Assembly (NCBI GenBank): GCA_964035575.1
Contig: OZ037834.1
Span: forward strand, 496,001-560,000
Length of the DNA: 64,000 nucleotides
Direction of reading: 5' to 3'
From: Rhynchopus sp. YZ270_cl-10
Taxonomy: Eukaryota
The notes below the pieces were generated by a model, which had not been told where the DNA came from, ran no database searches, and saw only the letters and a list, made by a program, of their open reading frames with translations. The position numbers were made by a program, and so were the translations under genes. Of the stretch, positions 13,218 to 52,559 are shown piece by piece. Within the stretch, counting starts at the first letter, position 1, and each line of letters starts with the position of its first letter.

Positions 13218-16149
13218 ATGTCAGCAAAACAAGGTGTGGTGGAGAAGATGCTCCAGAAGGACAGAGCAATCCCTGATGTCCCACCACCGAACTGGGAGCC
13301 GTTACCGAGGAACAAGGTATGGATCAGACATATTTTATTTAAAAATGACACAACAGACCACCATATCATGGGCACACTACTAGTTTTTTTTAAAGGGACA
13401 TGCAGTGTAGTGGGGGAATAAACTAGTAGATGCTTCAACGCAACAAACGAACAACAACAGACACAAGTAACTTTTTGGAGGAAAGTGGTACTACTAAGTC
13501 ATAACGACTCAGTGCTAAACTCTACCAATAGATCTCATAGAACTATTCATAAAAAAACAAGCACTGTTTGCTTGACCTACTATTCATTTGAACTAAGTGT
13601 TTTGAAGCACTACTAGTAGTCCCCCCCCCCTCTGACTATTCTGCTGTGGTTACAGTCCCGCCTCTAATTAGTGAATTTCTAATTTATAAATTCGACCAAA
13701 TCTGAAAATATTTAATTAGCGACTTTATAAATTAGAACGTCACTAATTAAGATTTTATAAATTAGCTTGTCCACCCAAATCCCAGTCTGAATCTCTACAA
13801 GACTATCTGCATCTTTCTCTCCGACCATCATGTCTGTCTCCACCACGGAATGAACGGAAAAAATGAAAGAAATATGCCGAAGATGTGACCATCGTCGAGC
13901 AGGCTGTCCTCACCGCCCCGGAGATTGTCACCATCACAGACAACGCCATGGCGGATGACAGAGAAGTTGAAAGTGCCAGCCTCACCGTTCATCGGCGGAC
14001 GCAGGCACTGATGACAGACCGCACGCTGATGTGATGGCGTGGTGGAATGACGCTCACCCAGGACGCCATATTTCTGCTCCCACCATCTCCAAGTACAAAA
14101 CCCACAAAAAGAGAGCGGTTCGTACTTCACCCAAGGCTCTTTTGAACCCCGAGGAGCTGAAGAGGTTTCTCAACCTTACGGGGATGACCCGCAAGTTCAA
14201 CAGCCAACCGATTTGCGTCGCTTGCGAGGGGGATGGTGGTGAAGACGAGGCGGGACACGCCTCGGTGTAACCGACTCCTGGTGCCAGGTCTTTTCATCTC
14301 GTGGGCGAAATAGACCATGGAGGTGAACGGCATGCGCGTCCGCACAGCCACCACCGACCGCACCGTTTTTTACCTCCGTGTATCACTGATTACACACCTC
14401 CTTTTCCACATATTCCTCCAACAGAACCCGCACAAACCCGTCGTCACTTGTGCAGGCAAAAAAATTTTTTTCGGCTCCGCCGGGGAAAATAAATTCAATA
14501 ACTTAGTATTCCCCCCCGAAAAATAAATTAATTCACGACTTTATAAATTAGAACGTCACTAATTAGGATTTTATAAAATAAAACGCTATTAATAATAGGC
14601 GGGACTGTAACATTTTCTCTCTCTTCTATCATAATTTTATCTTCTTTTTTTGTTCTCCTTTTTGTCAGGTATTCGACAGCAAAAACATGCCCATTTTGGC
14701 AAATCTGAAGGCACATTTCTTGAAGGAAGGCCTCCTCGCAGAACGGGACGCAGCAGAGCTGGTCAACCGCGCCGCAACGATTCTGAGAAAAGAACCGAAC
14801 CTGCTGCGTCTGAACGACCCTATCACCGTCTGCGGCGACGTGCACGGCCAGTTTTACGATCTCTGCAAATTGTTCGAAATCGGAGGCGATCCGCACGACC
14901 AGCAGTACCTCTTTTTGGGCGATTTTGTGGACCGTGGGTGCTTTGGGTGCGAAGTGGTGTTTTATTTGATGGCAGTTAAGCTGCGACACCCGGACACCTT
15001 CTTCATGCTCCGTGGCAACCACGAATGCCGCCACTTGACCGCATACTTCAACTTCAAAGCAGAATGCCTTTACAAATACAGCCAAACGACCTACGACCAG
15101 ATCATGTCCTGTTTCGACTGTCTCCCGATTGCCTCTGTTCTCAACGGAAGATTCCTTTGTGTACACGGCGGGTTGAGTCCTGACATCCGTAATGTTGAGG
15201 ACATCAACGCTATTCATCGTTTCAGGGAACCGCCATCTTCAGGACCTATGTGCGATCTGCTCTGGAGCGACCCCATGGACGAAGAGGAGGAAGAGTATTC
15301 CCCAGAGGCCCTGTACGTGCACAACGACCTGAGAGGGTGCTCCTATGTGTTCTCGTACAACGCGGTGTGTCAGTTCCTGGTGAACAACAACCTGCTCTCG
15401 GTGATTCGTGCGCATGAAGCCCAAGATGAAGGGTACCGTCTATACAAGAAATCCTCCACAGGGTTCCCGTCAGTGATCTGCATCTTCAGTGCGCCCAACT
15501 ATTGTGATTCGTACGACAACAAGGCAGCGATCATCCGTTTCCAGAACAACCTGATGAACATCAGGCAGTTCAACAGCAGCCCCCATCCGTACTACCTCCC
15601 GAACTTTATGAACGCCTTTACCTGGTCCATGCCGTTCGTTGCAGAAAAGGTATGAGGCATTCTTTTTGAAAATACTGGTGTGGCTGAAAGGGGGTGCTAC
15701 TTTCTGCTATATTCTGCTATTCTGGGCATCTGTATTTTTTGGTGTGGCTGAAGGGAGGTGCTATTTGTGCTACTTTCTGCTATTTTGGGGTCGTCAGCCA
15801 CACCATGAATCTAATTCTTTGTTAACCCCCTTTACCACAGGTGACCGACATGCTCATCACAATCTGGGATCTGGTGAAGGAATCCGAACAGGAACAAGAA
15901 GACAAACTGCAGGAACGGGGTCAGCACCTCAAGAACAAGATCATGGCAATGGGCAAGATGGCAAAGATCTTCAAGACATTGAGAGAGGAGAACGAGTCAG
16001 TTGTTATGCTGAAGGGGCTGGCAGGGGGGCAGGTGCCGGTGGGTGTTCTGCAACAAGGCCCTGATGCGGTCAAAGCATCGATCTGTTCCTTCCAAGGCGC
16101 AAGAACGATGGACCGTGGAAATGAAAAACGCCCCAATTTCCAGGGATAA
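13218..16149 (+). CDS. CNA: Calcineurin A (PP2B catalytic subunit), ~462 aa; exons 13218-13316, 14669-15649, 15841-16149
   Basis: GDVHG, GDFVDRG, LRGNHE, SAPNY; CnB-binding [16 protein letters not shown]; CaM-binding [22 protein letters not shown]; autoinhibitory [16 protein letters not shown]. Splicing restores [14 protein letters not shown]. Confidence 0.95.
13653..14607 (+). mobile_element. Tc1/mariner/pogo-like deletion derivative (955 bp) in calcineurin intron 1
   Basis: TA|CAGTCCCGCCT ... AGGCGGGACTG|TA. Subterminal repeat GACTTTATAAATTAGAACGTCACTAATTA near both ends. Internal decayed frame with CVAC...RSFHL (PHD-like). Confidence 0.85.
15676..15805. mobile_element. TGGTG...CACCA MITE (compound copy) in calcineurin intron 2. 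Clean copies of the same subfamily: 58704-58780, 63886-63958
   Basis: TIR TGGTGTGGCTGA / TC(A/G)GCCACACCA. Clean copies have 5-bp TSDs TATAT and ACTTC. Confidence 0.85.
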
Positions 16150-22931: not shown

Positions 22932-25900
22932 ATGCGCGCACTGCTGCTGCTCTCCATGTCGGTGGGGGTGCTCTCCGTCTCTCCAAGCTTCGACACGTCG
23001 CAAGCATCGCTGATCCAAAAGGAGTTTGAAGCCTTTGCCTCTGCCAACGGAGGACGTGGCGTGAAGCTTGTGATCGGAAACGCAAAGACAGGAGAACAGC
23101 AGGTGTTCTCTGCAGGAGATGCGTCGAAGGGAACACCTGTGTCGGAGAAGACGATCTTCAGGATGGGTGGGATGACAAAGGTGATGGCAGGGATGCTGAC
23201 TGCAATCGCATTTGAGGAGGGTGTGGTGAAGCCGACAGACGCAATTGCGAAGTTTGTTCCTGAGCTGGATGCGGCAGGTCTGAAGGCTGTGAGCTCGCAG
23301 GGAGGTGTGACGGTGACGTCGCCGCTGAACAGGAACTTCACGTTCTGGGACTGTCTTGGCATGAAGTGTGGGTTCAGCTACTCACACTGGGGTATGGGCA
23401 CAATGCGTGAGGCTTCCACCATTTCCCCTGCTGATGGTGTGTTCCCCCTTCTCACCAAGAACAAGTGTGCAGGTGCGTACACAACTGCACACGGAGGAAA
23501 GCTGATCCGCGAAGCTGCTTGGCTTGAGTGCAGAAAGCAGATCCCACTTGTGTCGCAGCCAGGACAGCGTTCGTACTACGGATACGACTACGACGTGATT
23601 GGTCTTGCTCTGTCGCGTGCGTACAAGATGAACGCAGAGGAGCTGATGCGGACGAAGATCTGGAGCAAGCTTGGAATGGACTCTGCCTTCATGAGCTGGC
23701 TGCCACAGGGCACGTCCCCGAGTGGTGATGTTGCGGACCTGCGCTTCACGGCACCTGGTGGCTCTGCTTACACCTCTGGATTTGCACCGAGCAACATGCC
23801 TGCAGGAAAAGACCTGTGGGCCAGTGAGGTGAAGACGTGGGACCAGGACATGTGGAACTTGATGGGACCCTTCAAACACGAGACCTCAGCAGATGCAAAG
23901 TACCCAGGTGTGTCTGGGTTTGGTGAGGGTGCCATGATGACGTTTGAGGACTACGCGAAGTTCCTTGTTGCCGTTGTGAACAAAGGGACTTCTGGGAATG
24001 CAACAATCATCTGCGAGACCATGTGGCAGAAGTTCACGAACCCCACTGTCCTGAGCACAGAGGGCATGCGCGCGAACCCCTCCGTTGGCTACCTTGAGGA
24101 AGGGAGCGACTTCTCGAAGCAGAGCGAATGGAAGTATGTCCACACTTCCCCCCCACACTACGTAGGTGATAACCCACCCCACGTCAGTACATACATCTCA
24201 AAGATGTTATAACCGCCACTTCATAACCTTCACCCTTGTGTTTTGTTTTGTTGTTGATTTTCTTGTACTTGGCGGAAATTGAGTGAAACGTTGGAAAAGG
24301 TTTTCAATGGATTCAATGGATGGAAAAGGTTTTCAAAAAAACCTGTGACAAAAAAAAACACCACCTCACAGATGGGGCTTTGCTGGGAGGAGAGGTGGCA
24401 GCGTGGCAAAGAGAGGCAGCCCGCAGTACCCATTCTTCTCTGAGGCGTCTGGCACGACAGGAGAGTGGCAGGGTGTCTTCGGCACCATGTTCAAGGTATG
24501 GTGCTTGGCTTTGAGTGGAGTCTTGAGAGAGGAGTACAGCTCAGTAGACGCTCTCTGCAAGTCCTTGGAAAAGTTCTCGTTTTTTGCCATGTGCAGAAAA
24601 AACAGTTTGTCTGTGCATACCAATGCACCACACACTAGAACGGTACTTGATTGAGTCACAGAACAGAATCACTTCCTTCTTGAACGCATTGAAACGACAA
24701 AACACACAAAACAGTTTGACTTCGAAAGCGGCATCTACGGTGTGGGAGGAGAGAACACACTGCCCTCGCAGAGTGGTGTGGACCAGGCAGGTGCACGGTT
24801 TGTGAAGGAGCACTTCAGCCGCTGGGCATCGCAGCTGTACCGAGGTGACGCTGTGCAGGCACCTCCAGCAAAGGAGGACGCGTTCGATGCCACTGTGCTG
24901 AAGGAGATCCAGGACGAAGTCACACAGTGGTCCAACGCAAACGGTGGGTGGGGTGTCAAGCTTGTGGTTGGAAACACAAAGTCTGGTGGCAGCCACACAA
25001 TCCAGGCGGGAAAGGCGTCGAAGGGAACACCTGTGTCGGAGAAGACGATCTTCAGGATGGGTGGGATGACAAAGGTGATGGCAGGGATGCTGACTGCAAT
25101 CGCATTTGAGGAGGGTGTGGTGAAGCCGACAGACGCGATTGCGAATTTTGTTCCTGAGCTGGATGCGGCAGGTCTGAAGGCTGTGAGCTCGCAGGGAGGT
25201 GTGATGGTGACGTCGCCGCTGAACAGGAACTTCACGTTCTGGGACTGTCTTGGCATGAAGTGTGGGTTCAGCTACTCACACTGGGGTATGGGCACAATGC
25301 GTGAGGCTTCCACCATTTCCCCTGCTGATGGTGTGTTCCCACTTCTCACTGCTGACAAGTGTGCAGGTGCGTACACAACTGCACACGGAGGAAAGCTGAT
25401 CCGCGAAGCTGCTTGGCTTGAGTGCAGAAAGCAGATCCCACTTGTGTCGCAGCCAGGACAGCGTTCGTACTACGGATACGACTACGACGTGATTGGTCTT
25501 GCTCTGTCGCGTGCGTACAAGATGAACGCAGAGGAGCTGATGCGGACGAAGATCTGGAGCAAGCTTGGAATGGACTCTGCCTTCATGAGCTGGCTGCCAC
25601 AGGGCACGTCCCCGAGTGGTGATGTTGCGGACCTGCGCTTCACAGCACCTGACGCCTCTGCTTACGCCTCAGGCACAACACCGAGCAACATGCCTGCAGG
25701 AAAGGACCTGTGGGCCAGTGAGGTGAAGACGTGGGACCAGGACATGTGGAACTTGATGGGACCCTTCAAACACGAGACCTCGACAGATGCAAAGTACCCA
25801 GGTGTATCTGGGTTTGGTGAGGGTGCCATGATGACGTTTGAGGACTACGCGAAGTTCCTTCATGTGCTGTCGAACAAAGGTGTTGGGAGCAACGGTGTGC

Positions 25901-28365
25901 GTCTTGTGAAGGAGAGCACGTGGACGTGGTTCATGTCTCCCGTTCAGGAGGCTGCTGAGGGAATGTCCTCCGCTCCCGCAGTGTGCTTTGCATCTGCAAC
26001 AGGTGAGATGTCGGCCCAGGCACTTTGGAAGTGGGGCTTTGCGAGTCTGACGAAGGAGGCTGCATCCACAGAAGCAGGAGGTCCGTCCCCTTCACTGGCA
26101 CAGCAGGACACTGTTGCAGCTGGGCAGTGGAGTGGTGAGTTTGGAACGATGTTCAAGTTTGATGCTGAGGCAGGGGTGTACGGAGTGGGAGGAGAGAACA
26201 CACTTCCGGGACAGTCAGGCGCTGGGAGGAAGGGTATTGACTTCATCCGCAGCAACTACGACAGGTGGATGGGGAAGCTGGCTCGTGGTCGCCACACAAA
26301 GCCTGCACAGACTGTCGCAGACGTGCAGAAGTCGGCATCTGTGGTTGAGATCCAGAAGGAAGTGGAGGTGTGGTCGAAGAGCTTCGGACGTGGTGTGAAG
26401 CTTGTGATCGGAAACGCAAAGACAGGAGAGCAGCAGGTGTTCTCTGCAGGAGATGCGTCGAAGGGAACACCTGTGTCGGAGAAGACGATCTTCAGGATGG
26501 GTGGGATGACAAAGGTAATGGCAGGGATGCTGACGGCAATCGCATTTGAGGAGGGTGTGGTGAAGCCGACAGACGCGATTGCGAAGTTTGTTCCTGAGCT
26601 GGATGCAGCAGGTCTGAAGGCTGTGAGCTCGCAGGGAGGTGTGACGGTGACGTCGCCGCTGAACAGGAACTTCACGTTCTGGGACTGTCTTGGGATGAAG
26701 TGTGGGTTCAGCTACTCGCACTGGGGTATGGGCACAATGCGTGAGGCTTCCACCATTTCCCCTTCTGACGGCGTGCTTCCTTTCCTGTCGAGCAACAAGT
26801 GTGCAGGTGCGTACACAACTGCACACGGAGGAAAGCTGATCCGTGAAGCTGCTTGGCTTGAGTGCAGAAAGCAGATCCCACTTGTGTCGCAGCCAGGACA
26901 GCGTTCGTACTACGGATACGACTACGACGTGATTGGTCTTGCTCTGTCGCGTGCGTACAAGATGAACGCAGAGGAGCTGATGCGGACGAAGATCTGGAGC
27001 AAGCTTGGAATGGACTCTGCCTTCATGAGCTGGCTGCCACAGGGCACGTCCCCGAGTGGTGATGTTGCGGACCTGCGCTTCACAGCACCTGACGCCTCTG
27101 CTTACGCCTCAGGCACAACACCGAGCAACATGCCTGCAGGAAAAGACCTGTGGGCCAGTGAGGTGCAGACGTGGGACCAGGACATGTGGAACTTGATGGG
27201 ACCCTTCAAACACGAGACCTCAACAGATGCAAAGTACCCAGGTGTGTCTGGGTTTGGTGAGGGTGCCATGATGACGTTTGAGGACTACGCGAAGTTCCTC
27301 TCTGCGTTGCTGAACAACGGCAACACACAGACAGAGAAGCTTCTTGGCGACGCGATGCTGCGTGCGATGGCTGGGAGCACAACAAGCGAGGACACGGGTC
27401 TGGGTGCCACCCCTGCGGTGCCGTTCGTTGGCGACGAATACGCATCGACCACCGAGTGGAAGTGGGGCTATGCACACACCACCACCGGGGAGGGCTGGAG
27501 CGGCGAATTCGGCACCGTCTTCCGCTTCAACCGCGAGACGGGCGACTACTTGGTGGGTGGCGAGAACACTCTACCTGCACAGGCAGCACGCCACCATGCG
27601 AAGGAGTTCATCCTGGCCAACGCACAACGCTGGACTGGCATGCTCCGTTGTGACACCACAAACAACTTTGTCGCCCCGAACGTTACCAACGGCACAGAAC
27701 CCCTCACTACCACTGAGGGCTCTGGAGATGGAACCACTACGGGTGGCGCAGCAAACGAGGAAGGTACCAGCTCAAGCAGCGGCGCTGGCGCGTGGTTCTT
27801 GATCCTTATTGTGGCTGCCAGCACGCTGCTGCTGTGCACTGCAGCAGGCATCTTCATGCTGCAGAACATTAAGGAACAGCGCCTGCACCTCTCCGACATC
27901 GGCAACATCGAGGACGAAATCATGCAAGAAGACGTATGTAACCCATCTTCTAACACAGACTCTTTTTTTTAGCAACTGTGGACGAATGGTTGCTCTGCAC
28001 TGTCGGAGGATATACTGTACCACTTCCAAATAAAGTAGTCAAATTACCCGTAAAAGGACCAGATCCCCAAAACTTATTTGGAGAATTTCTGTACCTGGAA
28101 ACACTTGACAACAAACTTGTGGAAAACCAGCGCTGCTGATGCTCCGTGATAACGAATATGATAAGGTGACTAAGCACAGAGAGGCTTAGGATTATCTTAT
28201 GAACGTTTCTTTCTTTTCAACCTCTCTTTCCCCCTTAAGTACCCTATCCACACCCCCTCTTAACAACAGTCGAAGGAGCTTCAAGAACCCCACGAGTCTT
28301 TGACTGACTACTCTGGCGGCAGCATGAGCCGTTCCCAGGGGCCTGGGCAGGAGTTTTCGCTCTAA
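22932..28365 (+). CDS. Type I membrane protein with 3 beta-lactamase/EstB-fold (serine hydrolase) domains, catalytic Ser->Gly, ~1546 aa; exons 22932-24133, 24372-24495, 24715-27933, 28270-28365
   Basis: Signal peptide MRALLLLSMSVGVLS. Each domain has KTIFRMGGMTK, PLVSQPGQRSYYGYDYDVIG, IWSKLGMDS and W(Q/S)G(V/E)FGT. T/G/S stalk, TM AWFLILIVAASTLLLCTAAGIFML, tail ending EFSL. Introns 1-2 are supported by alignment to the intronless domains 2 and 3. Confidence 0.9.
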
Positions 28366-29710
28366 AACGAAATGACATCTTTTTTTGCAAAAAAAAATAT
28401 AACAAAAAACCTTTTTTGTTTGTCTCAGCTCTTGGTTGAAGCTCAGTGTGTTCCACCCTTTTGCTGTCCCCTCTCCTCCTTCGCACCCCCATATTTAGTA
28501 GCAAAACAAACATATAGTGGAGTACACTCTAGGGTGGCTGCACTGATCCAACTAAGTTTTCAAAAAAAAAGAAGAAAAATAGAACCCATTCAGTCTGACA
28601 CTAATATCAGCATTTTTTTCAAAAAGAAAAAGGCTGTGTCCCCCAAGATGTATTTTCATGACAGGCTTGCCTTGAACATGTCATCACCTCTCCCTCTCGT
28701 ACATCCCCCCCGTCTTCTTTTATTCATTAAATTTTCTTTTTCTTTTTTGACACTTTGTGATCAAGGTGGCTAAGCACAGAAAGGCTTAGGTTCATCTTGT
28801 AAAAACGTTTTCTTTTAAAAGGCGCAAATCAGCTTATTATAGGCTTCTATCTTGTGATAGGCTGTAATCAAACGATTTTGTTTCTTTTTGCACAAAACAA
28901 AGGGTATATAGAGTGATGCTGTAATGCTTGAAGTGTACCGCATAATAGACAAAATAGGGTTTACAGTGGATACAACACTGCCACCCCTGTCTTTTGTGGT
29001 GCTCGTTGCTGGTGGGGTGAGTGTGTATGCGTGTCCGAGGGTTTTCATACTTGAGAGAGAAAACCAAGGGGTTGTCAAACTGAAGGCAAAAACGATGATG
29101 GGTAGTTACATCCCCTTAACCCTTTGTGCGTGAGATTACAGTCAAAGAAAACCCAGTTTCTAGTTGGGTGATGGTTTTATGCAACAGAAATAATCAAGCG
29201 AGAGAGCACGTCTGTATCCGCAGTTTTCCTTCTTTGCTGAAGGAAAATGAAAATATGTTGGAAGGGAAGGAGAGAAATGAGTATGTTTTTTAAATTGAGT
29301 TTTTTTTTTTTTTTTTTGTTACATGCGAAAATGAACACAGTGTGTAATCGGTACAAATGACGTCCATCTCTTTACTGAGATGGCTGTGTGACCAAAGGGG
29401 GGGGGACAATACGATACAGCTTTTGGAGAGTTGAAGACGGTTTACGTCTTCTTTTAAGCACCTTTTTTTTTTCCTGTTTTTTTTTTTTTGTTTTTTGTTT
29501 TTTGTGACACTCTAAACACAACGCAAATCCAAGTGGAACACCTCACACAAAACAGAGGATACATTCCTCCCACAAGGGTTCTGTGTTAAATGCATGCTTG
29601 CCACCCCTCCCGTAGTGGTGCCCTGTATTGTGATGTTTGCCCTATCAGAATACATCATACACACCACAAGACAGCTTGTATTGTGGTGTGTATGATGTAT
29701 TCTTTATTAT

Positions 29711-29833
29711 TGGTGTGATTCAGGGGGTACGCACAACCCACGGAAGTACCACGGAGAACTGTTTCGGGTTATATTAAGATTTGCGGAGCACCTTCGGGGG
29801 AACCACGGAGAATCCGTTTGGGTGATCACACCA
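29711..29833. mobile_element. TGGTG...CACCA MITE, subfamily 2 (123 bp). Interrupted relative at 62582-63360
   Basis: TIR TGGTGTGAT / ATCACACCA. TSD ATTAT. Confidence 0.85.
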
Positions 29834-30687
29834 ATTATTATGGGCAATTCTATCACCAATACAGCCACCACGAACCCCCCGTACCCCTCCACCACCACCA
29901 CCGTCGCCCCCTTTAGGACCGCCTGGCTCCCCTTATGCAGATCGATGTGGTGGCGCATTTAGCCTTTGAGATGCTTTGAGGGGGGATTTTTGTTTATTTC
30001 ATAGCTGCAAAAAAAAAACCCTTCTTTTGTTCTCAGATTCGAAAGAGGGGTTTTTGTTTTTTTATTCAAACTAAAAAGATGGGATCATTTTTTTGTTGAT
30101 CCCGAAACCTATGCTATCAATTTATTGAAGGCATATGTTGAAATAATTTTTGACATTGTTTACGCAATATTTTTTCGACAAAAAGCATTTCCCTTCGTCA
30201 TGTCTCTCTGTGAGACAGCATGGTTCGTGTGTATTTCACATCAAAAAGATTTTTTTTTTGGAGTTCGTCCGGAAATGATGGCGTTCACACAAAAAACAAA
30301 GGCATCTATCTTTCTCCCCATCACTTTTGCTTTTTTTCCCCCTAAGGTCTCACGGAACCATGTGGGGTGACAAATACGTGACTATTACCCCCAACGGGTT
30401 CCCCTCTTGGCTGTCTTCAAAAATTGAAGAAATTAAAGACATCTAAGACCGACAGAAGACAGAAGACAAGGTGTACCCTTACCTACCCCGCCACGTGTCG
30501 CGTGTCGAGGTGTATTGTGTGTCTTCGTATTGTACGTGTTTGTCACCCCGGTGGTACCCACACTGCACCCACAACTAATATTACTATATCAAAAAACACA
30601 GGTAGAATAGTCTCTTATTAGGGTAGTTGTGTGTTAGCAACAAAGAAATAAAAAAAAATAAAGACGCAAGTCCTGCAGTCCAGCACA

Positions 30688-33600
30688 ATGCGCGCACTGC
30701 TGCTGCTCTCCATGTCGGTGGGGGTGCTCTCCGTCTCTCCAAGCTTCGACACGTCGCAAACATCGCTGATCCAAAAGGAGTTTGAAGCCTTTGCCTCTGC
30801 CAACGGAGGACGTGGTGTGAAGCTTGTGATCGGAAACGCAAAGACAGGAGAGCAGCAGGTGTTCTCTGCAGGAGATGCGTCGAAGGGAACACCTGTGTCG
30901 GAGAAGACGATCTTCAGGATGGGTGGGATGACAAAGGTAATGGCAGGGATGCTGACGGCAATCGCATTTGAGGAGGGTGTGGTGAAGCCGACAGACGCGA
31001 TTGCGAAGTTTGTTCCTGAGCTGGATGCAGCAGGTCTGAAGGCTGTGAGCTCGCAGGGAGGTGTGACGGTGACGTCGCCACTGAACAGGAACTTCACGTT
31101 CTGGGACTGTCTTGGGATGAAGTGTGGGTTCAGCTACTCGCACTGGGGTATGGGCACAATGCGCGATCTTTCCACTATTTCCCCTGCTGATAGTGTGCTT
31201 CCTTCTCTCGCGAGCAACAAGTGTGCAGGTGCGTACACAACTGCACACGGAGGGAAGCTGATCCGCGAAGCTGCTTGGCTTGAGTGCAGAAAGCAGATCC
31301 CACTTGTGTCGCAGCCAGGACAGCGTTCGTACTACGGATACGACTACGACGTGATTGGTCTTGCTCTGTCGCGTGCGTACAAGATGAACGCAGAGGAGCT
31401 GATGCGGACGAAGATCTGGAGCAAGCTTGGAATGGACTCTGCCTTCATGAGCTGGCTGCCACAGGGCACGTCCCCGAGTGGTGATGTTGCGGACCTGCGC
31501 TTCACTGCACCTGGTGGCTCTGCTTACGCCTCAGGCAAAACACCGAGCAACATGCCTGCAGGAAAAGACCTGTGGGCCAGTGAGGTGAAGACGTGGGACC
31601 AGGACATGTGGAACTTGATGGGACCCTTCAAACACGAGACCTCAGCAGATGCAAAGTACCCAGGTGTGTCTGGGTTTGGTGAGGGTGCCATGATGACGTT
31701 TGAGGACTACGCGAAGTTCCTTGTCGCAGTTGTGAACAAAGGTGCTTCTGGGAATGCAACAATCATCTGCGAGACCATGTGGCAGAAGTTCACGAACCCC
31801 ACTGTCCTGAGCACAGAGGGCATGCGTGTGAGTCCCTCAGTTGGCTACCTTGAGGAGGGGAGCGACTTCTCGAAGCAGAGCGAGTGGAAGTATGTGCACA
31901 CTTTCCCCCCACACCACGTGATAACCCACCGCATGTCAGTACATTCATCCCAAAGATGTTATAACCACCACTTCATAGCTTCGCCCTTGTGTTTTGTTTT
32001 GTTTTGTTTTGTTGTTCATTTTCTTGTACTTCGCGGAAATTGAGTGAAACTGGAAAAGATTTTCAAAAAAAAACCTGTGACAAAAAAACACCACCTCACA
32101 GATGGGGCTTTGCTGGGAGGAGAGGTGGCAGCGTGGCAAAGAGAGGCAGCCCGCAGTACCCATTCTTCTCTGAGGCGTCAGGCACGACAGGAGAGTGGCA
32201 GGGTGTCTTCGGCACCATGTTCAAGGTATGGTGCTTGGCTTTGCGTGGAGGCTGAGAGAGGAGAACTATAACAAAACAAACGTGTTCGCTTTCTTTGCTT
32301 TGTGCATTCAAGAGGTCATTTTGATTTGTTACTCAATCAAGTATCACCACGGCGCTTGATTGAGTATAGTGGTTCCTGGCACGGTGTAGACCTTGCTCGT
32401 ATTCTGCATTGAAACCACAAAACACACAAAACAGTTCGACTTCGAAAGCGGGATCTACGGTGTGGGAGGAGAGAACACACTGCCCTCTCAGAGTGGTGTG
32501 GACCAGGCAGGTGCACGGTTTGTGAAGGAGCACTTCAGCCGCTGGGCATCGCAGCTGTACCGAGGTGACGCTGTGCAGGCACCTCCAGCAAAGGAGGACG
32601 CGTTCGATGCCACTGTGCTGAAGGAGATCCAGGATGAAGTCACACAGTGGTCCAACGCAAACGGTGGGTGGGGTGTCAAGCTTGTGGTTGGAAACACAAA
32701 GTCTGGTGGCAGCCACACAATCCAGGCGGGAAAGGCGTCGAAGGGAACACCTGTGTCGGAGAAGACGATCTTCAGGATGGGTGGGATGACAAAGGTGATG
32801 GCAGGGATGCTGACTGCAATCGCATTTGAGGAGGGTGTGGTGAAGCCGACAGACGCGATTGCGAATTTTGTTCCTGAGCTGGATGCGGCAGGTCTGAAGG
32901 CTGTGAGCTCGCAGGGAGGTGTGACGGTGACGTCGCCGCTGAACAGGAACTTCACGTTCTGGGACTGTCTTGGCATGAAGTGTGGGTTCAGCTACTCACA
33001 CTGGGGTATGGGCACAATGCGTGAGGCTTCCACCATTTCCCCTGCTGATGGTGTGTTCCCCCTTCTCACCAAGAACAAGTGTGCAGGTGCGTACACAACT
33101 GCAAACGGAGGAAAGCTGATCCGTGAAGCTGCTTGGCTTGAGTGCAGAAAGCAGATCCCACTTGTGTCGCAGCCAGGACAGCGTTCGTACTACGGATACG
33201 ACTACGACGTGATTGGTCTTGCTCTGTCGCGTGCGTACAAGATGAACGCAGAGGAGCTGATGCGGACGAAGATCTGGAGCAAGCTTGGAATGGACTCTGC
33301 CTTCATGAGCTGGCTGCCACAGGGCACGTCCCCGAGTGGTGATGTTGCGGACCTGCGCTTCACGGCACCTGGTGGCTCTGCTTACACCTCTGGATTTGCA
33401 CCGAGCAACATGCCTGCAGGAAAAGACCTGTGGGCCAGTGAGGTGAAGACGTGGGACCAGGACATGTGGAACTTGATGGGACCCTTCAAACACGAGACCT
33501 CAGCAGATGCAAAGTACCCAGGTGTGTCTGGGTTTGGTGAGGGTGCCATGATGACGTTTGAGGACTACGCGAAGTTCCTTCATGTGCTGTCGAACAAAGG

Positions 33601-36203
33601 TGTTGGGAGCAACGGTGTGCGTCTTGTGAAGGAGAGCACGTGGACGTGGTTCATGTCTCCTGTGCAGGAGGCTGCTGAGGGAATGTCTTTTTCGCCTGCC
33701 ACTAGGTTCACTTCGGCCACTGGTGAGATGTCGGCCCAGGCACTTTGGAAGTGGGGCTTTGCGAGTCTGACGAAGGAGGCTGCATCCACAGAAGCAGGTG
33801 GTCCGTCCCCTTCACTGGCACAGCAGGACACTGTTGCAGCTGGGCAGTGGAGTGGTGAGTTTGGAACGATGTTCAAGTTTGATGCTGAGGCAGGGGTGTA
33901 CGGAGTGGGAGGAGAGAACACACTTCCGGGACAGTCAGGCGCTGGGAGGAAGGGTATTGACTTCATCCGCAGCAACTACGACAGGTGGATGGGGAAGCTG
34001 GCTCGTGGTCGCCACACAAAGCCTGCACAGACTGTCGCAGACGTGCAGAAGTCGGCATCTGTGGTTGAGATCCAGAAGGAAGTGGAGGTGTGGTCGAAGA
34101 GCTTCGGACGTGGTGTGAAGCTTGTGATCGGAAACGCAAAGACAGGAGAGCAGCAGGTGTTCTCTGCAGGAGATGCGTCGAAGGGAACACCTGTGTCGGA
34201 GAAGACGATCTTCAGGATGGGTGGGATGACAAAGGTAATGGCAGGGATGCTGACGGCAATCGCATTTGAGGAGGGTGTGGTGAAGCCGACAGACGCGATT
34301 GCGAAGTTTGTTCCTGAGCTGGATGCAGCAGGTCTGAAGGCTGTGAGCTCGCAGGGAGGTGTGACGGTGACGTCGCCGCTGAACAGGAACTTCACGTTCT
34401 GGGACTGTCTTGGGATGAAGTGTGGGTTCAGCTACTCGCACTGGGGTATGGGCACAATGCGTGAGGCTTCCACTATTTCCCCTGCTGATAGTGTGTTCCC
34501 ACTTCTCACCAAGAACAAGTGTGCAGGTGCGTACACAACTGCAAACGGAGGGAAGCTGATCCGTGAAGCTGCTTGGCTTGAGTGCAGAAAGCAGATCCCA
34601 CTTGTGTCGCAGCCAGGACAGCGTTCGTACTACGGATACGACTACGACGTGATTGGTCTTGCTCTGTCGCGTGCGTACAAGATGAACGCAGAGGAGCTGA
34701 TGCGGACGAAGATCTGGAGCAAGCTTGGAATGGACTCTGCCTTCATGAGCTGGCTGCCACAGGGCACGTCCCCGAGTGGTGATGTTGCGGACCTGCGCTT
34801 CATGGCACCTGACGCTTCTGCTTACGCCTCAGGCAAAACACCGAGTAACATGCCTGCAGGAAAAGACCTGTGGGCCAGTGAGGTGCAGACGTGGGACCAG
34901 GACATGTGGAACTTGATGGGACCCTTCAAACACGAGACCTCAACAGATGCAAAGTACCCAGGTGTGTCTGGGTTTGGTGAGGGTGCCATGATGACGTTTG
35001 AGGACTACGCGAAGTTCCTCTCTGCGTTGCTGAACAACGGCAACACACAGACAGAGAAGCTTCTTGGCGACGCGATGCTGCGTGCGATGGCTGGGAGCAC
35101 AACAAGCGAGGACACGGGTCTGGGCGCTTCCCCTGGAGTTCCTTTCTTTGGCGACGAATACGCATCGACCACCGAGTGGAAGTGGGGCTATGCACACACC
35201 ACCACCGGGGAGGGCTGGAGCGGCGAATTCGGCACCGTCTTCCGCTTCAACCGCGAGACGGGCGACTACTTGGTGGGTGGCGAGAACACTCTACCTGCAC
35301 AGGCAGCACGCCACCATGCGAAGGAGTTCATCCTGGCCAACGCACAACGCTGGACTGGCATGCTCAACTGCGACGCCACCATGAACACGACTACCGACAC
35401 AACGAATGTCACCTTCCCCACTGACGCACCCTCTAACGACAACACCACCAATGGCACAGACGTGCCCGACGCAGACGACACCACCTCCCCCTCTGATGCT
35501 GACAACACGACCTACAGCAACACCACCGTCACACCTGACGACGCATCCAGCACCAATTCCCCTAACGAGACCAACTCGACCACCTCCCCTGTCAACATGC
35601 TCGACAGCGCGGTGCACGAAAAGATTGGCGACAACGACGACGGTGCGAGCATCTGGCTCATCCTCCTCGCAGTACTGGGAGGGCTCTGTGTGGTGCTCTC
35701 TGTCATTGGGGCTGTGATCTACAAGAAAACCAGGAAGCAAAGACTGCACCTTTCTGACCTTACCAATATGGATGACGAAATCTTTTATGAGCACTACGTA
35801 TGTAAACGCATTTTCAAAGGAAAAAAAATACCAAAATAGAGGGTTTCGTATTTCAAGTCAACTTTCATTATGTTCCTGATGTAAACCACGAAACAATCGA
35901 TGTAGGACTGCAGTTGGGGGTACACCCACAACCCCGGTACATTGTCATTAGAGGGTTGTTGTATTTCAAGCCAACTTTTCTTTCATCACGGTGACTAAGC
36001 ACGAGAGACTTAGGATCATCTTATAAACCTTTCTTGATTTGCCTCAATAGAGTTTCCCTTACCACCACCCCCCATCCCCACAGGACCAAGAGCTCAGCGG
36101 ATTCGAGTCCCCCTCTGATGGAGCAGCACCAAGCCCCACAGCATCTGGGGGCAACGCCAGCAGTATGCATTCCTCTTCAGAGAACGTAAACTTCCGCCTG
36201 TAA
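30688..36203 (+). CDS. Paralogue 2 of the triple pseudo-beta-lactamase membrane protein, ~1602 aa; exons 30688-31889, 32102-32225, 32435-35797, 36084-36203
   Basis: Same exon structure and near-identical domains. Longer T/D/N-rich stalk with many N-x-T/S sequons. TM IWLILLAVLGGLCVVLSVIGAVIY. Tail ending NFRL. Confidence 0.9.
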
Positions 36204-37165: not shown

Positions 37166-39008
37166 CACGACGGTGAAGTCAATGACATGACATCTGCATT
37201 TGACATGTGCTTACCATGTAACTTGTTTTTACATGTGCGGTAACGTATATTGGCCGTAAAAATGTCATGTGTTTCACATGTATTTCACGTGTCATTTTAC
37301 ATGTAAAAGCACATGTCTGGGGTGGCGACAAGGGGGGTCGGAACTGGGCAGTCACGAAAAATCACGAAAAATCACAAAGAATCATTTTTCTTCTTTGTGA
37401 TTCTTTGCGACAGGTCGTGATTTTTTGTGACCTTTTTGCGATTTTTTGTGATTTTTTGCGATTTTTTGTGATTTTTTGTGATGTTTTGTGATCTTTTGTG
37501 ATTTTTTGTGATCGGCATATTTTGAGATGAGCTTTTTTTTGTCCCACTCTGGCACTGTGTATGCTGTGTATACCGTGAAAACTGTGTATACTGTGGAAAT
37601 TGACCAAAAACGAGAACTTGTCCATTTCGGCAAATTGACCCCACCACTGGCCAGACGGATTCCGGAAATGCAAATGCCGATGTTTAAAAATTTCACCAAT
37701 GAAAACAAAACAAAAATTTCCAACAACAAACAACACATGAATGCCCCCCAAAACGGCATGACATCTGGTAGAAACAGGGTAGGGAATCGGTTATGCAGCC
37801 ACGCCGAAAAAGTTCAATTTTAAGCGAAACTTACACGCAGAACTGAGAACAACTGAGCACAACTGAACACAATTCCACCACAATTACAGCACAATTGCAG
37901 CAGCCCAAAACGGTACACTTTTGTGATTTTTTGTGATTTTTTGTGATTTTTTGTGATGTTTTGTGATCTTTTGTGATTTTTTGTGATCGGCATATTTTGA
38001 GATGAGCTTTTTTTTGTCCCACTCTGGCACTGTGTATGCTGTGTATACCGTGAAAACTGTGTATACTGTGGAAATTGACCAAAAACGAGAACTTGTCCAT
38101 TTCGGCAAATTGACCCCACCACTGGCCAGACGGATTCCGGAAATGCAAATGCCGATGTTTAAAAATTTCACCAATGAAAACAAAACAAAAATTTCCAACA
38201 ACAAACAACACATGAATGCCCCCCAAAACGGCATGACATCTGGTAGAAACAGGGTAGGGAATCGGTTATGCAGCCACGCCGAAAAAGTTCAATTTTAAGC
38301 GAAACTTACACGCAGAACTGAGAACAACTGAGCACAACTGAACACAATTCCACCACAATTACAGCACAATTGCAGCAGCCCAAAACGGTACACTTTTGTG
38401 ATTTTTTGTGATTTTTTGCGATTTTTTGTGATTTTTTGTGATGTTTTGTGATCTTTTGTGATTTTTTGTGATCGGCATATTTTGAGATGAGCTTTTTTTT
38501 GTCCCACTCTGGCACTGTGTATGCTGTGTATACCGTGAAAACTGTGTATACTGTGGAAATTGACCAAAAACGAGAACTTGTCCATTTCGGCAAATTGACC
38601 CCACCACTGGCCAGACGGATTCCGGAAATGCAAATGCCGATGTTTAAAAATTTCACCAATGAAAACAAAACAAAAATTTCCAACAACAAACAACACATGA
38701 ATGCCCCCCAAAACGGCATGACATCTGGTAGAAACAGGGTAGGGAATCGGTTATGCAGCCACGCCGAAAAAGTTCAATTTTAAGCGAAACTTACACGCAG
38801 AACTGAGAACAACTGAGCACAACTGAACACAATTCCACCACAATTACAGCACAATTGCAGCAGCCCAAAACGGTACACTTTTGTGATTTTTTGTGATTTT
38901 TTGTGATTTTTCGTGATCGAGAGAATTTGAAAATATTTTTTGTGAATATTTTTTTCCACACCCCCCCTGTCGCCACCCCAATGTCATGTCATTGACTTCA
39001 CCGTCGTG
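37166..39008. mobile_element. CACGACGG-ended element (1843 bp) containing 3 tandem ~475-485 bp units
   Basis: Long TIR CACGACGGTGAAGTCAATGACATGACAT. It splits a family-C copy at GGATTG-TA-GGACTG with TA duplicated. Equivalent unit positions at 37527, 38002 and 38487; units differ in (TTTTGTGATT)n count. Confidence 0.9.
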
Positions 39009-44851: not shown

Positions 44852-46288
44852 ATGCGTGCCACAGTTGCGTCGGTGCTGCTGCTCTCAGCGTGTGTGGATG
44901 TTGCGAGCGCAAGCCACCTGTGCACGTCGTTGGTGCCGCGCCTGATGTCGACGGTGCGCTGCCGCAACGATGCGAAGTGCATGCGGCACATTGGCGTCCA
45001 GCTCTGTGGTGGTGTCGCAACGTGCACTGCAGCGGGCTTCTGCGACTGGAGTGCTGAGCCCGCACCCACCTGTGACGATATCAAAGCCGACTTCACCAGC
45101 TACCTTGCGACCATCCAGACCTGCGACACTGCGAGCGAGTGTGGTACTGTGCTGACCGGGACAAGCTGTGGGTGCACACGCAACCTGGTGGCACGTGCTG
45201 ACCTGACCGCACAGCAGGTGGCAGACTTCGAGGCCCTGAAGGCGCAGTACTCAGTCTGTGGTGGCAGCTTCCTCTCGACCTGCGACTGCCCGGCTGCCTC
45301 TGGCTTCAAGTGCTCGGAGAACCGCTGCTCGTTCAACCTTGTGACTGCACCTGTGCCCGTGCCCGTGCCGGAGCCGACCTGTGATGAGATCACAACTGAC
45401 TACAACGCATTCCTGGCGAGAATCCAGACCTGCTCGGCAGCAAGCGACTGTGGCACTGTGCTGTCCGGAACCGGCTGTGGATGCACACGCAACAAGGTGG
45501 CACGTGCTGACTTGAGCGCAACCGACCTGGCGACGTTCAACACCCTGCTCGGACAGTACCAGACCTGCAACGGGCCCCTGATCACCATCTGCGACTGCCC
45601 GGCCTCTGACGGCTTCAGGTGCACGGACGCGGGTGTGTGTGCACACAACTTTGTGACTGCACCTGTGCCCGTGCCTGTGCCGGAGCCGACCTGTGACGAG
45701 ATCACAACTGACTACAACGCATTCCTGGCGAGAATCCAGACCTGCTCGGCAGCAAGCGACTGTGGCACTGTGTTGTCAGGGACCGGCTGTGGATGCACAC
45801 GCAACAAGGTGGCACGTGCTGACTTGAGCGCAACCGACCTGGCGACGTTTGAGACCCTGCTCGGACAGTACCAGACCTGCAACGGACCCCTGATCACCAT
45901 CTGCGACTGCCCGGCCTCTGACGGCTTCAGGTGCACGGACGCGGGTATGTGTGCGCACAACCTTGTGGGCACACAGCCCGCACCTATTGTTTCTGTTTGC
46001 AGCACCGCGGAGGCAGAGTACGAAGCCGCCCTCACCACCGTGCAGACCTGCAGAGAGAGTGCCGAATGCGAGCCGGCACGCCCGCTGGTGGGAACGAGCT
46101 GTGGGTGCACCAGGAACCTGCTTGCGAGTGTGCGTGCGACAGACGCCGAGATGGCCGCATTCAGCGCGAAGAAGGATGTCCTTGTGGAGTGCTTCGGCAG
46201 CAGCAGGTTCATCAGCACATGCGACTGCCCCGCACGCGTGCCACAGTGTGTGGCAGGGAGGTGTGCGTACAGCGCAGCCCTGGCGTGA
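44852..46288 (+). CDS. Secreted Cys-rich repeat protein, copy 1 (478 aa, 4 modules)
   Basis: Signal peptide, 6-Cys N-domain, four ~104-aa 10-Cys modules (GT(S/G)CGCTRN...CDCP), APVPVPVP linkers, no TM segment. Confidence 0.9.
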   Translation: MRATVASVLLLSACVDVASASHLCTSLVPRLMSTVRCRNDAKCMRHIGVQLCGGVATCTAAGFCDWSAEPAPTCDDIKADFTSYLATIQTCDTASECGTVLTGTSCGCTRNLVARADLTAQQVADFEALKAQYSVCGGSFLSTCDCPAASGFKCSENRCSFNLVTAPVPVPVPEPTCDEITTDYNAFLARIQTCSAASDCGTVLSGTGCGCTRNKVARADLSATDLATFNTLLGQYQTCNGPLITICDCPASDGFRCTDAGVCAHNFVTAPVPVPVPEPTCDEITTDYNAFLARIQTCSAASDCGTVLSGTGCGCTRNKVARADLSATDLATFETLLGQYQTCNGPLITICDCPASDGFRCTDAGMCAHNLVGTQPAPIVSVCSTAEAEYEAALTTVQTCRESAECEPARPLVGTSCGCTRNLLASVRATDAEMAAFSAKKDVLVECFGSSRFISTCDCPARVPQCVAGRCAYSAALA

Positions 46289-48600: not shown

Positions 48601-49725
48601 ATGCGTGCCACAGTTGCGTCGGTGCTGCTGCTCTCAGCGTGTGTGGATGTTGCGAGCGCAAGCCACCTGTGCACGTCGTTGGTGCCGCGCCTGATGTCGA
48701 CGGTGCGCTGCCACAGCGATGCGAAGTGCATGCGGCACATTGGCGTCCAGCTCTGCGGTGGTGTCGCAACGTGCACTGCAGCGGGCTTCTGCGACTGGAG
48801 TGCTGAGCCCGTACCCACCTGTGACGAGATCAAAGCCGACTTCACCAGCTACCTTGCGACCATTCAGACCTGCGACACTGCGAGCGAGTGTGGTACTGTG
48901 CTGACCGGGACAAGCTGTGGGTGCACACGCAACCTGGTGGCACGTGCTGACCTGACCGCACAGCAGGTGGCAGACTTCGAGGCCCTGAAGGCGCAGTACT
49001 CAGCCTGTGGTGGCAGCTTCCTCTCGACCTGCGACTGCCCGGCTGCCTCTGGCTTCAAGTGCTCGGAGAACCGCTGCTCGTTCAACCTTGTGACTGCACC
49101 TGTGCCCGTGCCTGTGCCGGAGCCGACCTGTGACGAGATCACAACTGACTACAACGCATTCCTGGCGAGAATCCAGACCTGCTCGGCAGCAAGCGACTGT
49201 GGCACTGTGTTGTCCGGAACCGGCTGTGGATGCACACGCAACAAGGTGGCACGTGCTGACTTGAGCGCAGCCGACCTGGCGACGTTTAACACCCTGCTCG
49301 GACAGTACCAGACCTGCAACGGGCCCCTGATCACCATCTGCGACTGCCCGGCCTCTGACGGCTTCAGGTGCACGGACGCGGGTATGTGTGCGCACAACCT
49401 TGTGGGCACACAGCCCGCACCTATTGTTTCTGTTTGCAGCACCGCGGAGGCAGAGTACGAAGCCGCCCTCACCACCGTGCAGACCTGCAGAGAGAGTGCC
49501 GAATGCGAGCCGGCACGCCCGCTGGTGGGAACGAGCTGTGGGTGCACCAGGAACCTGCTTGCAAGTGTGCGTGCGACAGACGCCGAGATGGCCGCATTCA
49601 GCGCGAAGAAGGATGTTCTTGTGGAGTGCTTCGGCAGCAGCAGGTTCATCAGCACATGCGACTGCCCCGCACGCGTGCCACAGTGTGTGGCAGGGAGGTG
49701 TGCGTACAGCGCAGCCCTGGCGTGA
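48601..49725 (+). CDS. Secreted Cys-rich repeat protein, copy 2 (374 aa, 3 modules)
   Basis: Near-identical to copy 1 minus one 312-bp module. Confidence 0.9.
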   Translation: MRATVASVLLLSACVDVASASHLCTSLVPRLMSTVRCHSDAKCMRHIGVQLCGGVATCTAAGFCDWSAEPVPTCDEIKADFTSYLATIQTCDTASECGTVLTGTSCGCTRNLVARADLTAQQVADFEALKAQYSACGGSFLSTCDCPAASGFKCSENRCSFNLVTAPVPVPVPEPTCDEITTDYNAFLARIQTCSAASDCGTVLSGTGCGCTRNKVARADLSAADLATFNTLLGQYQTCNGPLITICDCPASDGFRCTDAGMCAHNLVGTQPAPIVSVCSTAEAEYEAALTTVQTCRESAECEPARPLVGTSCGCTRNLLASVRATDAEMAAFSAKKDVLVECFGSSRFISTCDCPARVPQCVAGRCAYSAALA

Positions 49726-51122: not shown

Positions 51123-52559
51123 ATGCGTGCCACAGTTGCGTCGGTGCTGCTGCTCTCAGCGTGTGTGGATGTTGCGAGCGCAAGCCACCTGTGCACGTCG
51201 TTGGTGCCGCGCCTGATGTCGACGGTGCGCTGCCACAGCGATGCGAAGTGCATGCGGCACATTGGGGTCCAGCTCTGTGGTGGTGTCGCAACGTGCACTG
51301 CAGCGGGCTTCTGCGACTGGAGTGCTGAGCCCGCACCCACCTGTGACGAGATCAAAGCCGACTTCACCAGCTACCTTGCGACCATTCAGACCTGCGACAC
51401 TGCGAGCGAGTGTGGCACTGTGCTGACCGGGACAAGCTGTGGGTGCACACGCAACCTGGTGGCACGTGCTGACCTGACCGCACAGCAGGTGGCAGACTTC
51501 GAGGCCCTGAAGGCGCAGTACTCAGTCTGTGGTGGCAGCTTCCTCTCGACCTGCGACTGCCCGGCTGCCTCTGGCTTCAAGTGCTCGGAGAACCGCTGCT
51601 CGTTCAACCTTGTGACTGCACCTGTGCCCGTGCCCGTGCCGGAGCCGACCTGTGATGAGATCACAACTGACTACAACGCATTCCTGGCGAGAATCCAGAC
51701 CTGCTCGGCAGCAAGCGACTGTGGCACTGTGTTGTCCGGGACCGGCTGTGGATGCACGCGCAACAAGGTGGCACGTGCTGACTTGAGCGCAGCCGACCTG
51801 GCGACGTTCAGCTCCCTGCTCGGACAGTACCAGACCTGCAACGGACCTCTGATCACCATCTGCGACTGCCCGGCCTCTGACGGCTTCAGGTGCACGGACG
51901 CGGGTGTGTGTGCACACAACTTTGTGACTGCACCTGTGCCAGTGCCTGTGCCGGAGCCGACCTGTGATGAGATCACAACTGACTACAACGCATTCCTGGC
52001 GAGAATCCAGACCTGCTCGGCAGCAAGCGACTGTGGCACTGTGTTGTCCGGAACCGGCTGTGGATGCACACGCAACAAGGTGGCACGTGCTGACTTGAGC
52101 GCAGCCGACCTGGCGACGTTTGAGACCCTGCTCGGACAGTACCAGACCTGCAACGGACCCCTGATCACCATCTGCGACTGCCCGGCCTCTGACGGCTTCA
52201 GGTGCACGGACGCGGGTATGTGTGCGCACAACCTTGTGGGCACACAGCCCGCACCTATTGTTTCTGTTTGCAGCACCGCGGAGGCAGAGTACGAAGCCGC
52301 CCTCACCACCGTGCAGACCTGCAGAGAGAGTGCCGAATGCGAGCCGGCACGCCCGCTGGTGGGAACGAGCTGTGGGTGCACCAGGAACCTGCTTGCGAGT
52401 GTGCGTGCGACAGACGCCGAGATGGCCGCATTCAGCGCGAAGAAGGATGTTCTTGTGGAGTGCTTCGGCAGCAGCAGGTTCATCAGCACATGTGACTGCC
52501 CCGCACGCGTGCCACAGTGTGTGGCAGGGAGGTGTGCGTACAGCGCAGCCCTGGCGTGA
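51123..52559 (+). CDS. Secreted Cys-rich repeat protein, copy 3 (478 aa, 4 modules)
   Basis: Near-identical to copy 1. Followed by a third copy of the spacer to ~53780. Confidence 0.9.
   Translation: MRATVASVLLLSACVDVASASHLCTSLVPRLMSTVRCHSDAKCMRHIGVQLCGGVATCTAAGFCDWSAEPAPTCDEIKADFTSYLATIQTCDTASECGTVLTGTSCGCTRNLVARADLTAQQVADFEALKAQYSVCGGSFLSTCDCPAASGFKCSENRCSFNLVTAPVPVPVPEPTCDEITTDYNAFLARIQTCSAASDCGTVLSGTGCGCTRNKVARADLSAADLATFSSLLGQYQTCNGPLITICDCPASDGFRCTDAGVCAHNFVTAPVPVPVPEPTCDEITTDYNAFLARIQTCSAASDCGTVLSGTGCGCTRNKVARADLSAADLATFETLLGQYQTCNGPLITICDCPASDGFRCTDAGMCAHNLVGTQPAPIVSVCSTAEAEYEAALTTVQTCRESAECEPARPLVGTSCGCTRNLLASVRATDAEMAAFSAKKDVLVECFGSSRFISTCDCPARVPQCVAGRCAYSAALA

Follow-up and report, generated by a model that had tools for sequence, protein, structure and literature searches.

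Mosaic antigenic variation of the trypanosome variant surface glycoprotein (VSG) arises by segmental gene conversion of a euglenozoan surface protein, with a silent archive, an expression site and a glycosylphosphatidylinositol (GPI) coat. Clustered protocadherins, as Noonan is said to have reported in 2004, are a recognition family shuffled by conversion. Major histocompatibility complex (MHC) genes, self-incompatibility genes, resistance (R) genes, immunoglobulins (Ig) and protocadherins have many paralogues, often with pseudogene donors, and commonly show a ratio of nonsynonymous to synonymous substitution rates (dN/dS) > 1. The review PMC3924837 presents MHC, self-incompatibility, R genes and Ig as cases in which conversion combines variable segments of surface proteins, and covers the divergence peaks seen in red and green opsins, which are duplicated genes under conversion (Innan 2003, Teshima and Innan 2008). 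Here, we analysed a 64,000-nt stretch of Rhynchopus sp. YZ270_cl-10 (assembly GCA_964035575.1, contig OZ037834.1, positions 496,001 to 560,000; hereafter the window), which holds two tandem paralogues on the + strand with four exons apiece and GT-AG introns. Both code for a signal peptide followed by three PF00144 domains, a stalk rich in Thr and Asn, a single transmembrane (TM) helix and a short tail. The product of both genes is a predicted single-pass surface protein, exposed on a stalk with many N-glycosylation motifs. The six domains are nearly identical over a common core, and most of their differences fall into three short patches.

The locus resembles the opsins in that homogenised paralogues carry narrow, old islands of silent and replacement differences at likely functional sites. 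Unlike in the opsins, conversion here appears to act also between non-equivalent domains within a gene, among six units, and the island alleles are swapped between units instead of being fixed per paralogue; moreover, the coding part is homogenised while the introns diverge, whereas opsins show the reverse. Conversion seems to combine variable segments of a surface protein as in the MHC, self-incompatibility, R gene and Ig families, but with two genes, no donor pool seen and a ratio of nonsynonymous to synonymous differences per site (pN/pS) below 1. Like VSG, the product is a euglenozoan surface protein under segmental conversion; in contrast to VSG, neither a silent archive nor an expression site nor a GPI coat was seen, and its few alleles are old. 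As an evolutionary process this is a known one. For the protein family, and for a free-living protist in which conversion links non-equivalent domains and exchanges their pocket loops, no description was found in the literature searched, subscription journals being outside its coverage.

Homogenised cores and divergent patches

The initial annotation had described a near-identical core of ~870 nt in all six domains. The near-identity holds, but the stretch common to all six is 842 nt long, and domains 1 and 3 share ~60-70 nt more upstream. Pairwise, the cores (named by gene and domain, g1d1 to g2d3) differ at 4-35 nt and are 95-100% identical in protein, and in a tree they form one clade (96/100). 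In contrast, the C-terminal flanks are 25-35% identical and cluster by domain position, in agreement with the position-specific domain ends described earlier. The transition is abrupt, identity falling from 30/30 nt to 13-15/30 past the core end. Gene 1 domain 1 indeed shares patches 1 and 2 with the non-equivalent domain 2 of gene 2: their cores are 4 nt apart, against 31 nt between g1d1 and g2d1. The paralogues are ~100% identical over the ectodomain outside the patches, but there is little to align between their introns, stalks and tails; the duplication is thus old, and homogenisation of the coding part came later.

Mosaic structure is evident within the cores. The four-gamete test found 111 of 300 informative site pairs incompatible, with a minimum number of recombination events (Rm) of 4, and identity runs were significant at <=0.01 in 7/15 pairs, uncorrected. 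Two related genomes share the three-domain layout and the exon breaks, relative B with three paralogues on one 476-kb contig and relative C with one gene on a 1.47-Mb contig, but their domain cores are only 55-72% identical within each genome. Since the same cores are so much less alike there, homogenisation is most likely due to lineage-specific, non-allelic gene conversion. The earlier claim of segmental conversion is thus well supported by the incompatible site pairs, by the core clade set against positional flanks and by the unhomogenised relatives. Domains 1 and 3 of relative C match at 100% over core codons 151-200, which correspond to the invariant stretch of the present cores. This suggests, if the assembly of C is accurate, that the most conserved segment is where homogenisation begins. 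A preprint on HMA4 (10.1101/2025.10.29.685298) describes conversion rates that vary within genes and give mosaic divergence, a result that supports caution. Genes 1 and 2 are unlikely to be a pair of haplotypes placed in tandem by the assembly, as their introns and tails cannot be aligned and relative B has its three paralogues on one contig.

The patch sequences quoted in the initial annotation are all present in the window, and the clustering it noted was borne out: 15 of the 20 variable core residues lie in patches 1 and 2, and patch 3, which differs between the paralogues, holds 10 of the 12 amino-acid differences in 579 flank codons. The 840 nt compared contain 53 variable sites, of which 22 and 14 fall within the best 54-nt windows, and invariant runs extend to 238 nt at most; none of these three values was reached in 20,000 permutations, although clustered sites are not independent and the p-values are optimistic. 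In g2d1, patch 1 reaches further upstream (DL at core codons 96-97). Synonymous differences per site (pS) amount to 0.29, 0.25 and 0.64 in patches 1-3, versus 0.037 outside, and pN/pS to 0.47, 0.62 and 0.22 (uncorrected Nei-Gojobori). Positive selection at the patches, for which pN/pS served as the test, was not found, all three values being < 1. The unconverted TM/tail region has a pS of 0.68, matched by patch 3; this equal silent divergence indicates that patch 3 escaped conversion between the paralogues about as long as the tail. To judge from silent divergence, the patches are old islands rather than fast-evolving sites, a pattern that PMC3924837 describes for opsins as the signature of a peak of divergence.

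Further support for the cores came from public Logan contigs of 6 of the 10 listed runs, from three studies, data that contain no read crossing a core from one flank to the other. These contigs join the core to three downstream and two upstream flanks and contain the patch alleles. Core depth is ~2-3x the depth of the two-copy flank, which fits a total of about six cores, depth not being a copy number. These data indicate that the homogenised mosaic is not a collapse artefact.

Esterase fold, lost serine and predicted pocket

The closest characterized proteins are the family VIII carboxylesterases (EstG 7U1C/7UDA, EstU1 4IVI, Est-Y29 and EstB), which have the class C beta-lactamase fold (PF00144). 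All four open reading frames (ORFs) score above the PF00144 cut-off. The AlphaFold2 (AF2) domain model has a predicted local distance difference test (pLDDT) score of 85 and a predicted template modelling (pTM) score of 0.91, and its top structural matches are EstG and EstU1 (Z 36-37, root-mean-square deviation ~3 Å, 380-387 residues; for EstG, Foldseek E 1e-22 and VIA Z 36.8). In common with these esterases, the domains retain the SxxK Lys (K65), the motif II Tyr (Y198) and WxG (W417-S-G419; domain-2 model numbering), together with a beta-hairpin insertion like that of EstG. Unlike them, the proteins carry three tandem domains on a membrane stalk, have clade-specific insertions in the pocket loops and lack the catalytic Ser, the Gly of an FRMGGMTK motif aligning to EstU1 Ser100 and EstG Ser101. 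All six domains have this Ser-to-Gly change, as does every diplonemid-type homologue checked; among motif matches in the scanned homologues, 110/115 have Ser and 5/115 Gly, and four of those five are diplonemid-type proteins. The nearest environmental relatives retain Ser. Because Gly replaces the catalytic Ser, and EstG S101A is inactive according to the preprint bioRxiv 2022.04.12.488081, the domains are likely pseudo-enzymes, which likely bind a ligand rather than cut it. A bacterial beta-lactamase or resistance gene was ruled out by the introns, the missing Ser and the membrane anchor.

Named close homologues come only from the diplonemids Artemidia motanka and Diplonema ambulator, which makes a diplonemid source of the window most likely, and comparison with the Atlas returned generic PF00144 clusters only. 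For the D. papillatum genome (PMC10161547), the words 'receptor' and 'lactamase' do not occur in the main text, and the supplements give a 'beta-lactamase' orthogroup, which may or may not be the present family, as a diplonemid gain. The unnamed environmental proteins P0005, P0015, P0021, P0024 and P0031 are close relatives with the catalytic Ser, P0015 and P0021 having tandem domains; another, P0022, has a hydrophobic segment at the C-terminus. The Ser-retaining relatives hint at a broader family of surface esterases as the possible origin of the Gly-type forms.

By alignment, and by counting offsets from the Ser and Tyr residues, patch 1 maps to the R1 segment and patch 2 to the omega-loop hairpin, at its tip, with the loop limits given in PMC10725956. 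In the account of EstU1 in PMC4844572, the R1 segment and the omega-loop define the R1 subsite. Patch 3 aligns weakly with loop 346-357 of EstG, a loop that sulfate binding orders and that may occlude the active site. All three patches lie partly within insertions peculiar to the clade. They are predicted to frame the old active-site pocket as a shared surface; their description as pocket loops thus stands as far as alignment to the pocket-framing loops of solved relatives goes. As a separate observation, the relative B proteins P0003/P0010/P0011 and P0007/P0008 vary at core codons 46-69, corresponding to the EstG beta4-beta5 hairpin.

Alternatives for the persistence of the islands

On balance, we consider it probable that the two genes are old tandem paralogues encoding a Ser-less three-domain surface protein, in which conversion homogenises the cores, selection keeps old variants of the predicted pocket loops and conversion recombines them. 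Starting in the most conserved stretch, conversion would have extended to both sides as far as the flanks could still pair despite their divergence, and frequent conversion would maintain one scaffold in six places. Selection against conversions by which a loop variant loses its only remaining copy would raise peaks of divergence, while short conversion tracts would recombine the loop variants. Each cell would then display six pockets with different loop combinations, and a wider range of ligands or partners may be recognised.

An explanation we regard as unlikely, though it survives best among the alternatives, is that conversion swept divergent domains and has not yet overwritten some tolerant loops, where mismatches block the tracts and the variants are functionless. 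The near-saturated silent divergence of the patches, their pN/pS < 1 and their position in poorly conserved, clade-specific insertions fit such relics, and the g1d3 patch-1 allele starts like the domain-3 allele of relative B. The placement of patch 3 speaks against them: after the core end, the densest paralogue window falls at codons 34-36, 36-37 and 32-36 in three independent flanks of 199, 200 and 116 codons, for which a shared offset has a chance of ~0.003 (our own rough arithmetic). The flank next to patch 3 is no less tolerant (32% vs 38% identity among homologues), and equally tolerant stretches have been homogenised (core codons 41-70, flank codons 281-314). Moreover, patch alleles move between domains, so the patches are not sealed against conversion. 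In relative B, the paralogues vary at the same places with other alleles: they differ at patch 1 in all three domains and at patch 3 in domain 3, and 20/58 variable sites lie in patches versus 157/915 in background comparisons, the sites not being independent. Neutral simulations readily leave 1.5-5 islands, and one multi-lineage island arose in 43/213 homology-dependent runs, but two islands of >=3 lineages were rare, arising in 15/2,400 runs and in 0/213 homology-dependent runs; these models are crude, and the third homology-dependent setting comprises 3 runs only. Given the recurring patch-3 offset, the variation in relative B and the rarity of two islands in simulations, selection is preferred over neutral relics.

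Several points weigh against selected pocket loops, beginning with the islands that neutral models do leave and the non-independence of clustered sites. Between species, few parts are as poorly conserved as patches 1 and 2 (43% and 40%), so that tolerance contributes to their variation. Relative B has an extra variable hairpin, core codons 46-69, which is nearly invariant here, and shows only one difference at patch 2. As for the pocket, contact is judged from alignment and not from coordinates, patch 3 aligns to the EstG loop with a weak score of 7.6 bits, patch 2 lies within a clade-specific insertion absent from Artemidia, and the pLDDT of patches 1 and 3 is only ~56-70. Finally, the assignment of patches to domains comes from the assembly alone, and the binding function of the six pockets is putative.

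Less probable still is that enemies such as viruses, bacteria or predators keep the pocket rim variable, by frequency-dependent selection on the exposed rim of a coat or uptake receptor. The genetic signature expected would be the same as that of selected binding pockets, the protein is predicted to be exposed on a stalk with many N-glycosylation motifs, and the trypanosome transferrin receptor with its variable patches offers an analogy. Against this stand the lack of any excess of amino-acid changes (pN/pS < 1) and the old alleles, which fit a stable function better than an arms race.

The initial annotation had likened the locus to a diversifying receptor system, and it is very improbable that frequent, perhaps somatic, segmental conversion builds new loop combinations from a donor pool. 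The mosaic alleles inside patches 1 and 2 with Rm = 4 and the very recent transfer between g1d1 and g2d2 are what such a system would produce. However, among the 40 alternative letters listed from the public contigs, 39 already occur in the six copies and the 40th stands between paired 1-nt gaps, as an alignment shift. Thus, no donor pool was seen: no new allele appears among the listed letters and depth is near six copies, in contigs that drop rare variants. Such contigs do not phase patch 1 with patch 2, and one of run X5 has an allele combination absent from the assembly; it was treated as a bubble-popping mosaic and not used as evidence. The window showed neither cassettes nor a recombination signal nor pseudogenes. 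With pN/pS at 0.2-0.6 and silent divergence of patch 3 equal to that of the unconverted tail, the term is overstated, and the pattern is one of old variants kept and recombined, not of new variants made quickly. That the mosaics are assembly or polishing artefacts of a six-copy repeat is hardly credible: the public data are all contigs, with no read spanning a core, but those of three studies (one of which may be the source of the assembly) agree on junctions and alleles and show no other letter between 25404 and 25644, relative C is partially homogenised in the same stretch, and an artefact could only change which allele sits in which domain.

Gene structure, neighbouring features and implications

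The features of both genes are listed in Table 1. In gene 1, a contig of the public run X5 joins 24133>24372 and 24495>24715, both GT..AG, which indicates that the first two introns are spliced and that a single transcript covers domains 1 and 2; X5 is among the public runs with no record as RNA, yet the spliced joints are present. The putative last intron of both genes is placed from motifs alone.

Table 1. Features of the two candidate receptor genes, in window coordinates
Feature	Position	Strand	Basis or remark
Gene 1 exon 1: signal peptide, most of domain 1	22932..24133	+	ORF, GT donor, X5 spliced joint
Gene 1 exon 2: domain 1 C-terminal strands	24372..24495	+	both GT..AG joints in one X5 contig
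Gene 1 exon 3: domain 1 end, domains 2-3, Thr/Asn-rich stalk, TM helix ~27793-27861, tail start	24715..27933	+	5' joint seen in X5 contig; 3' donor inferred from GTATGT motif
Gene 1 predicted last exon (cytoplasmic tail)	28270..28365	+	AG acceptor and open frame; inferred
Gene 2 exon 1: signal peptide, most of domain 1	30688..31889	+	ORF; homology to gene 1
Gene 2 exon 2	32102..32225	+	
Gene 2 exon 3: domains 2-3, longer stalk, TM helix ~35651-35722, tail start	32435..35797	+	
Gene 2 predicted last exon	36084..36203	+	inferred
Core g1d1	23124..23965	+	Gly for catalytic Ser at 23169-23171
Six-copy invariant stretch (g1d1 coordinates)	23511-23748	+	
Core g1d2	25018..25859	+	
Core g1d3	26458..27299	+	
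Core g2d1	30880..31721	+	
Core g2d2	32738..33579	+	4 nt from g1d1
Core g2d3	34178..35019	+	
Patch 1, g1d1 (core codons 95-113, R1 segment)	23406..23462	+	other copies 25300, 26740, 31162, 33020, 34460
Patch 2, g1d1 (core codons 209-221, omega-loop hairpin tip)	23748..23786	+	other copies 25642, 27082, 31504, 33362, 34802
Patch 3, g1d1	24069..24083	+	paralogue copy 31825-31839
Patch 3, g1d2	25966..26001	+	paralogue copy 33686-33721; aligns with EstG loop 346-357
Patch 3, g1d3	27403..27429	+	paralogue copy 35123-35149

A dispersed element of ~45 nt with the inverted repeat CTAAGC...GCTTAG occurs on the + strand only (8632, 21935, 28165, 28765, 35990, 36329, 37103, 61762 and 61895), and the last intron of both candidate receptor genes contains a copy; a small repeat or a signal for RNA processing are possible identities. 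Elsewhere in the window, three tandem genes (44852-46288, 48601-49725 and 51123-52559, +) encode a predicted secreted Cys-rich protein with ~103-aa internal repeats, for which no Pfam family scored above cut-off and no usable Atlas match was obtained. The first and third copies (a and c) differ at 21/1437 nt and share ~700 nt of common 3' flank, and close relatives lie on two other large contigs. In addition, the window contains tandem units of 475-485 nt with 10-nt microsatellite runs (37434-38900), a calcineurin-like phosphatase exon (14687-15655, +) and a protein kinase ORF of 1416 aa (54310-58560, +).

The locus and its relatives form a natural series of homogenisation between domains, which is absent in B, partial in C and complete here. 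If the islands were neutral relics, the locus would still be a clear case of intragenic concerted evolution, and little more. Diplonemids are described in the D. papillatum genome paper (PMC10161547) as being among the most abundant marine microeukaryotes. The locus represents a candidate receptor family derived from inactive esterases, in which the conversion pattern marks three loops of interest. It is possible, though doubtful, that conversion between the tandem domains of these dead-esterase diplonemid receptors acts as a combinatorial shuffler, with a fixed scaffold and three exchangeable loops, by which a predatory, free-living protist would gain a tunable repertoire to recognise prey, partners or small ligands, new combinations arising among isolates.

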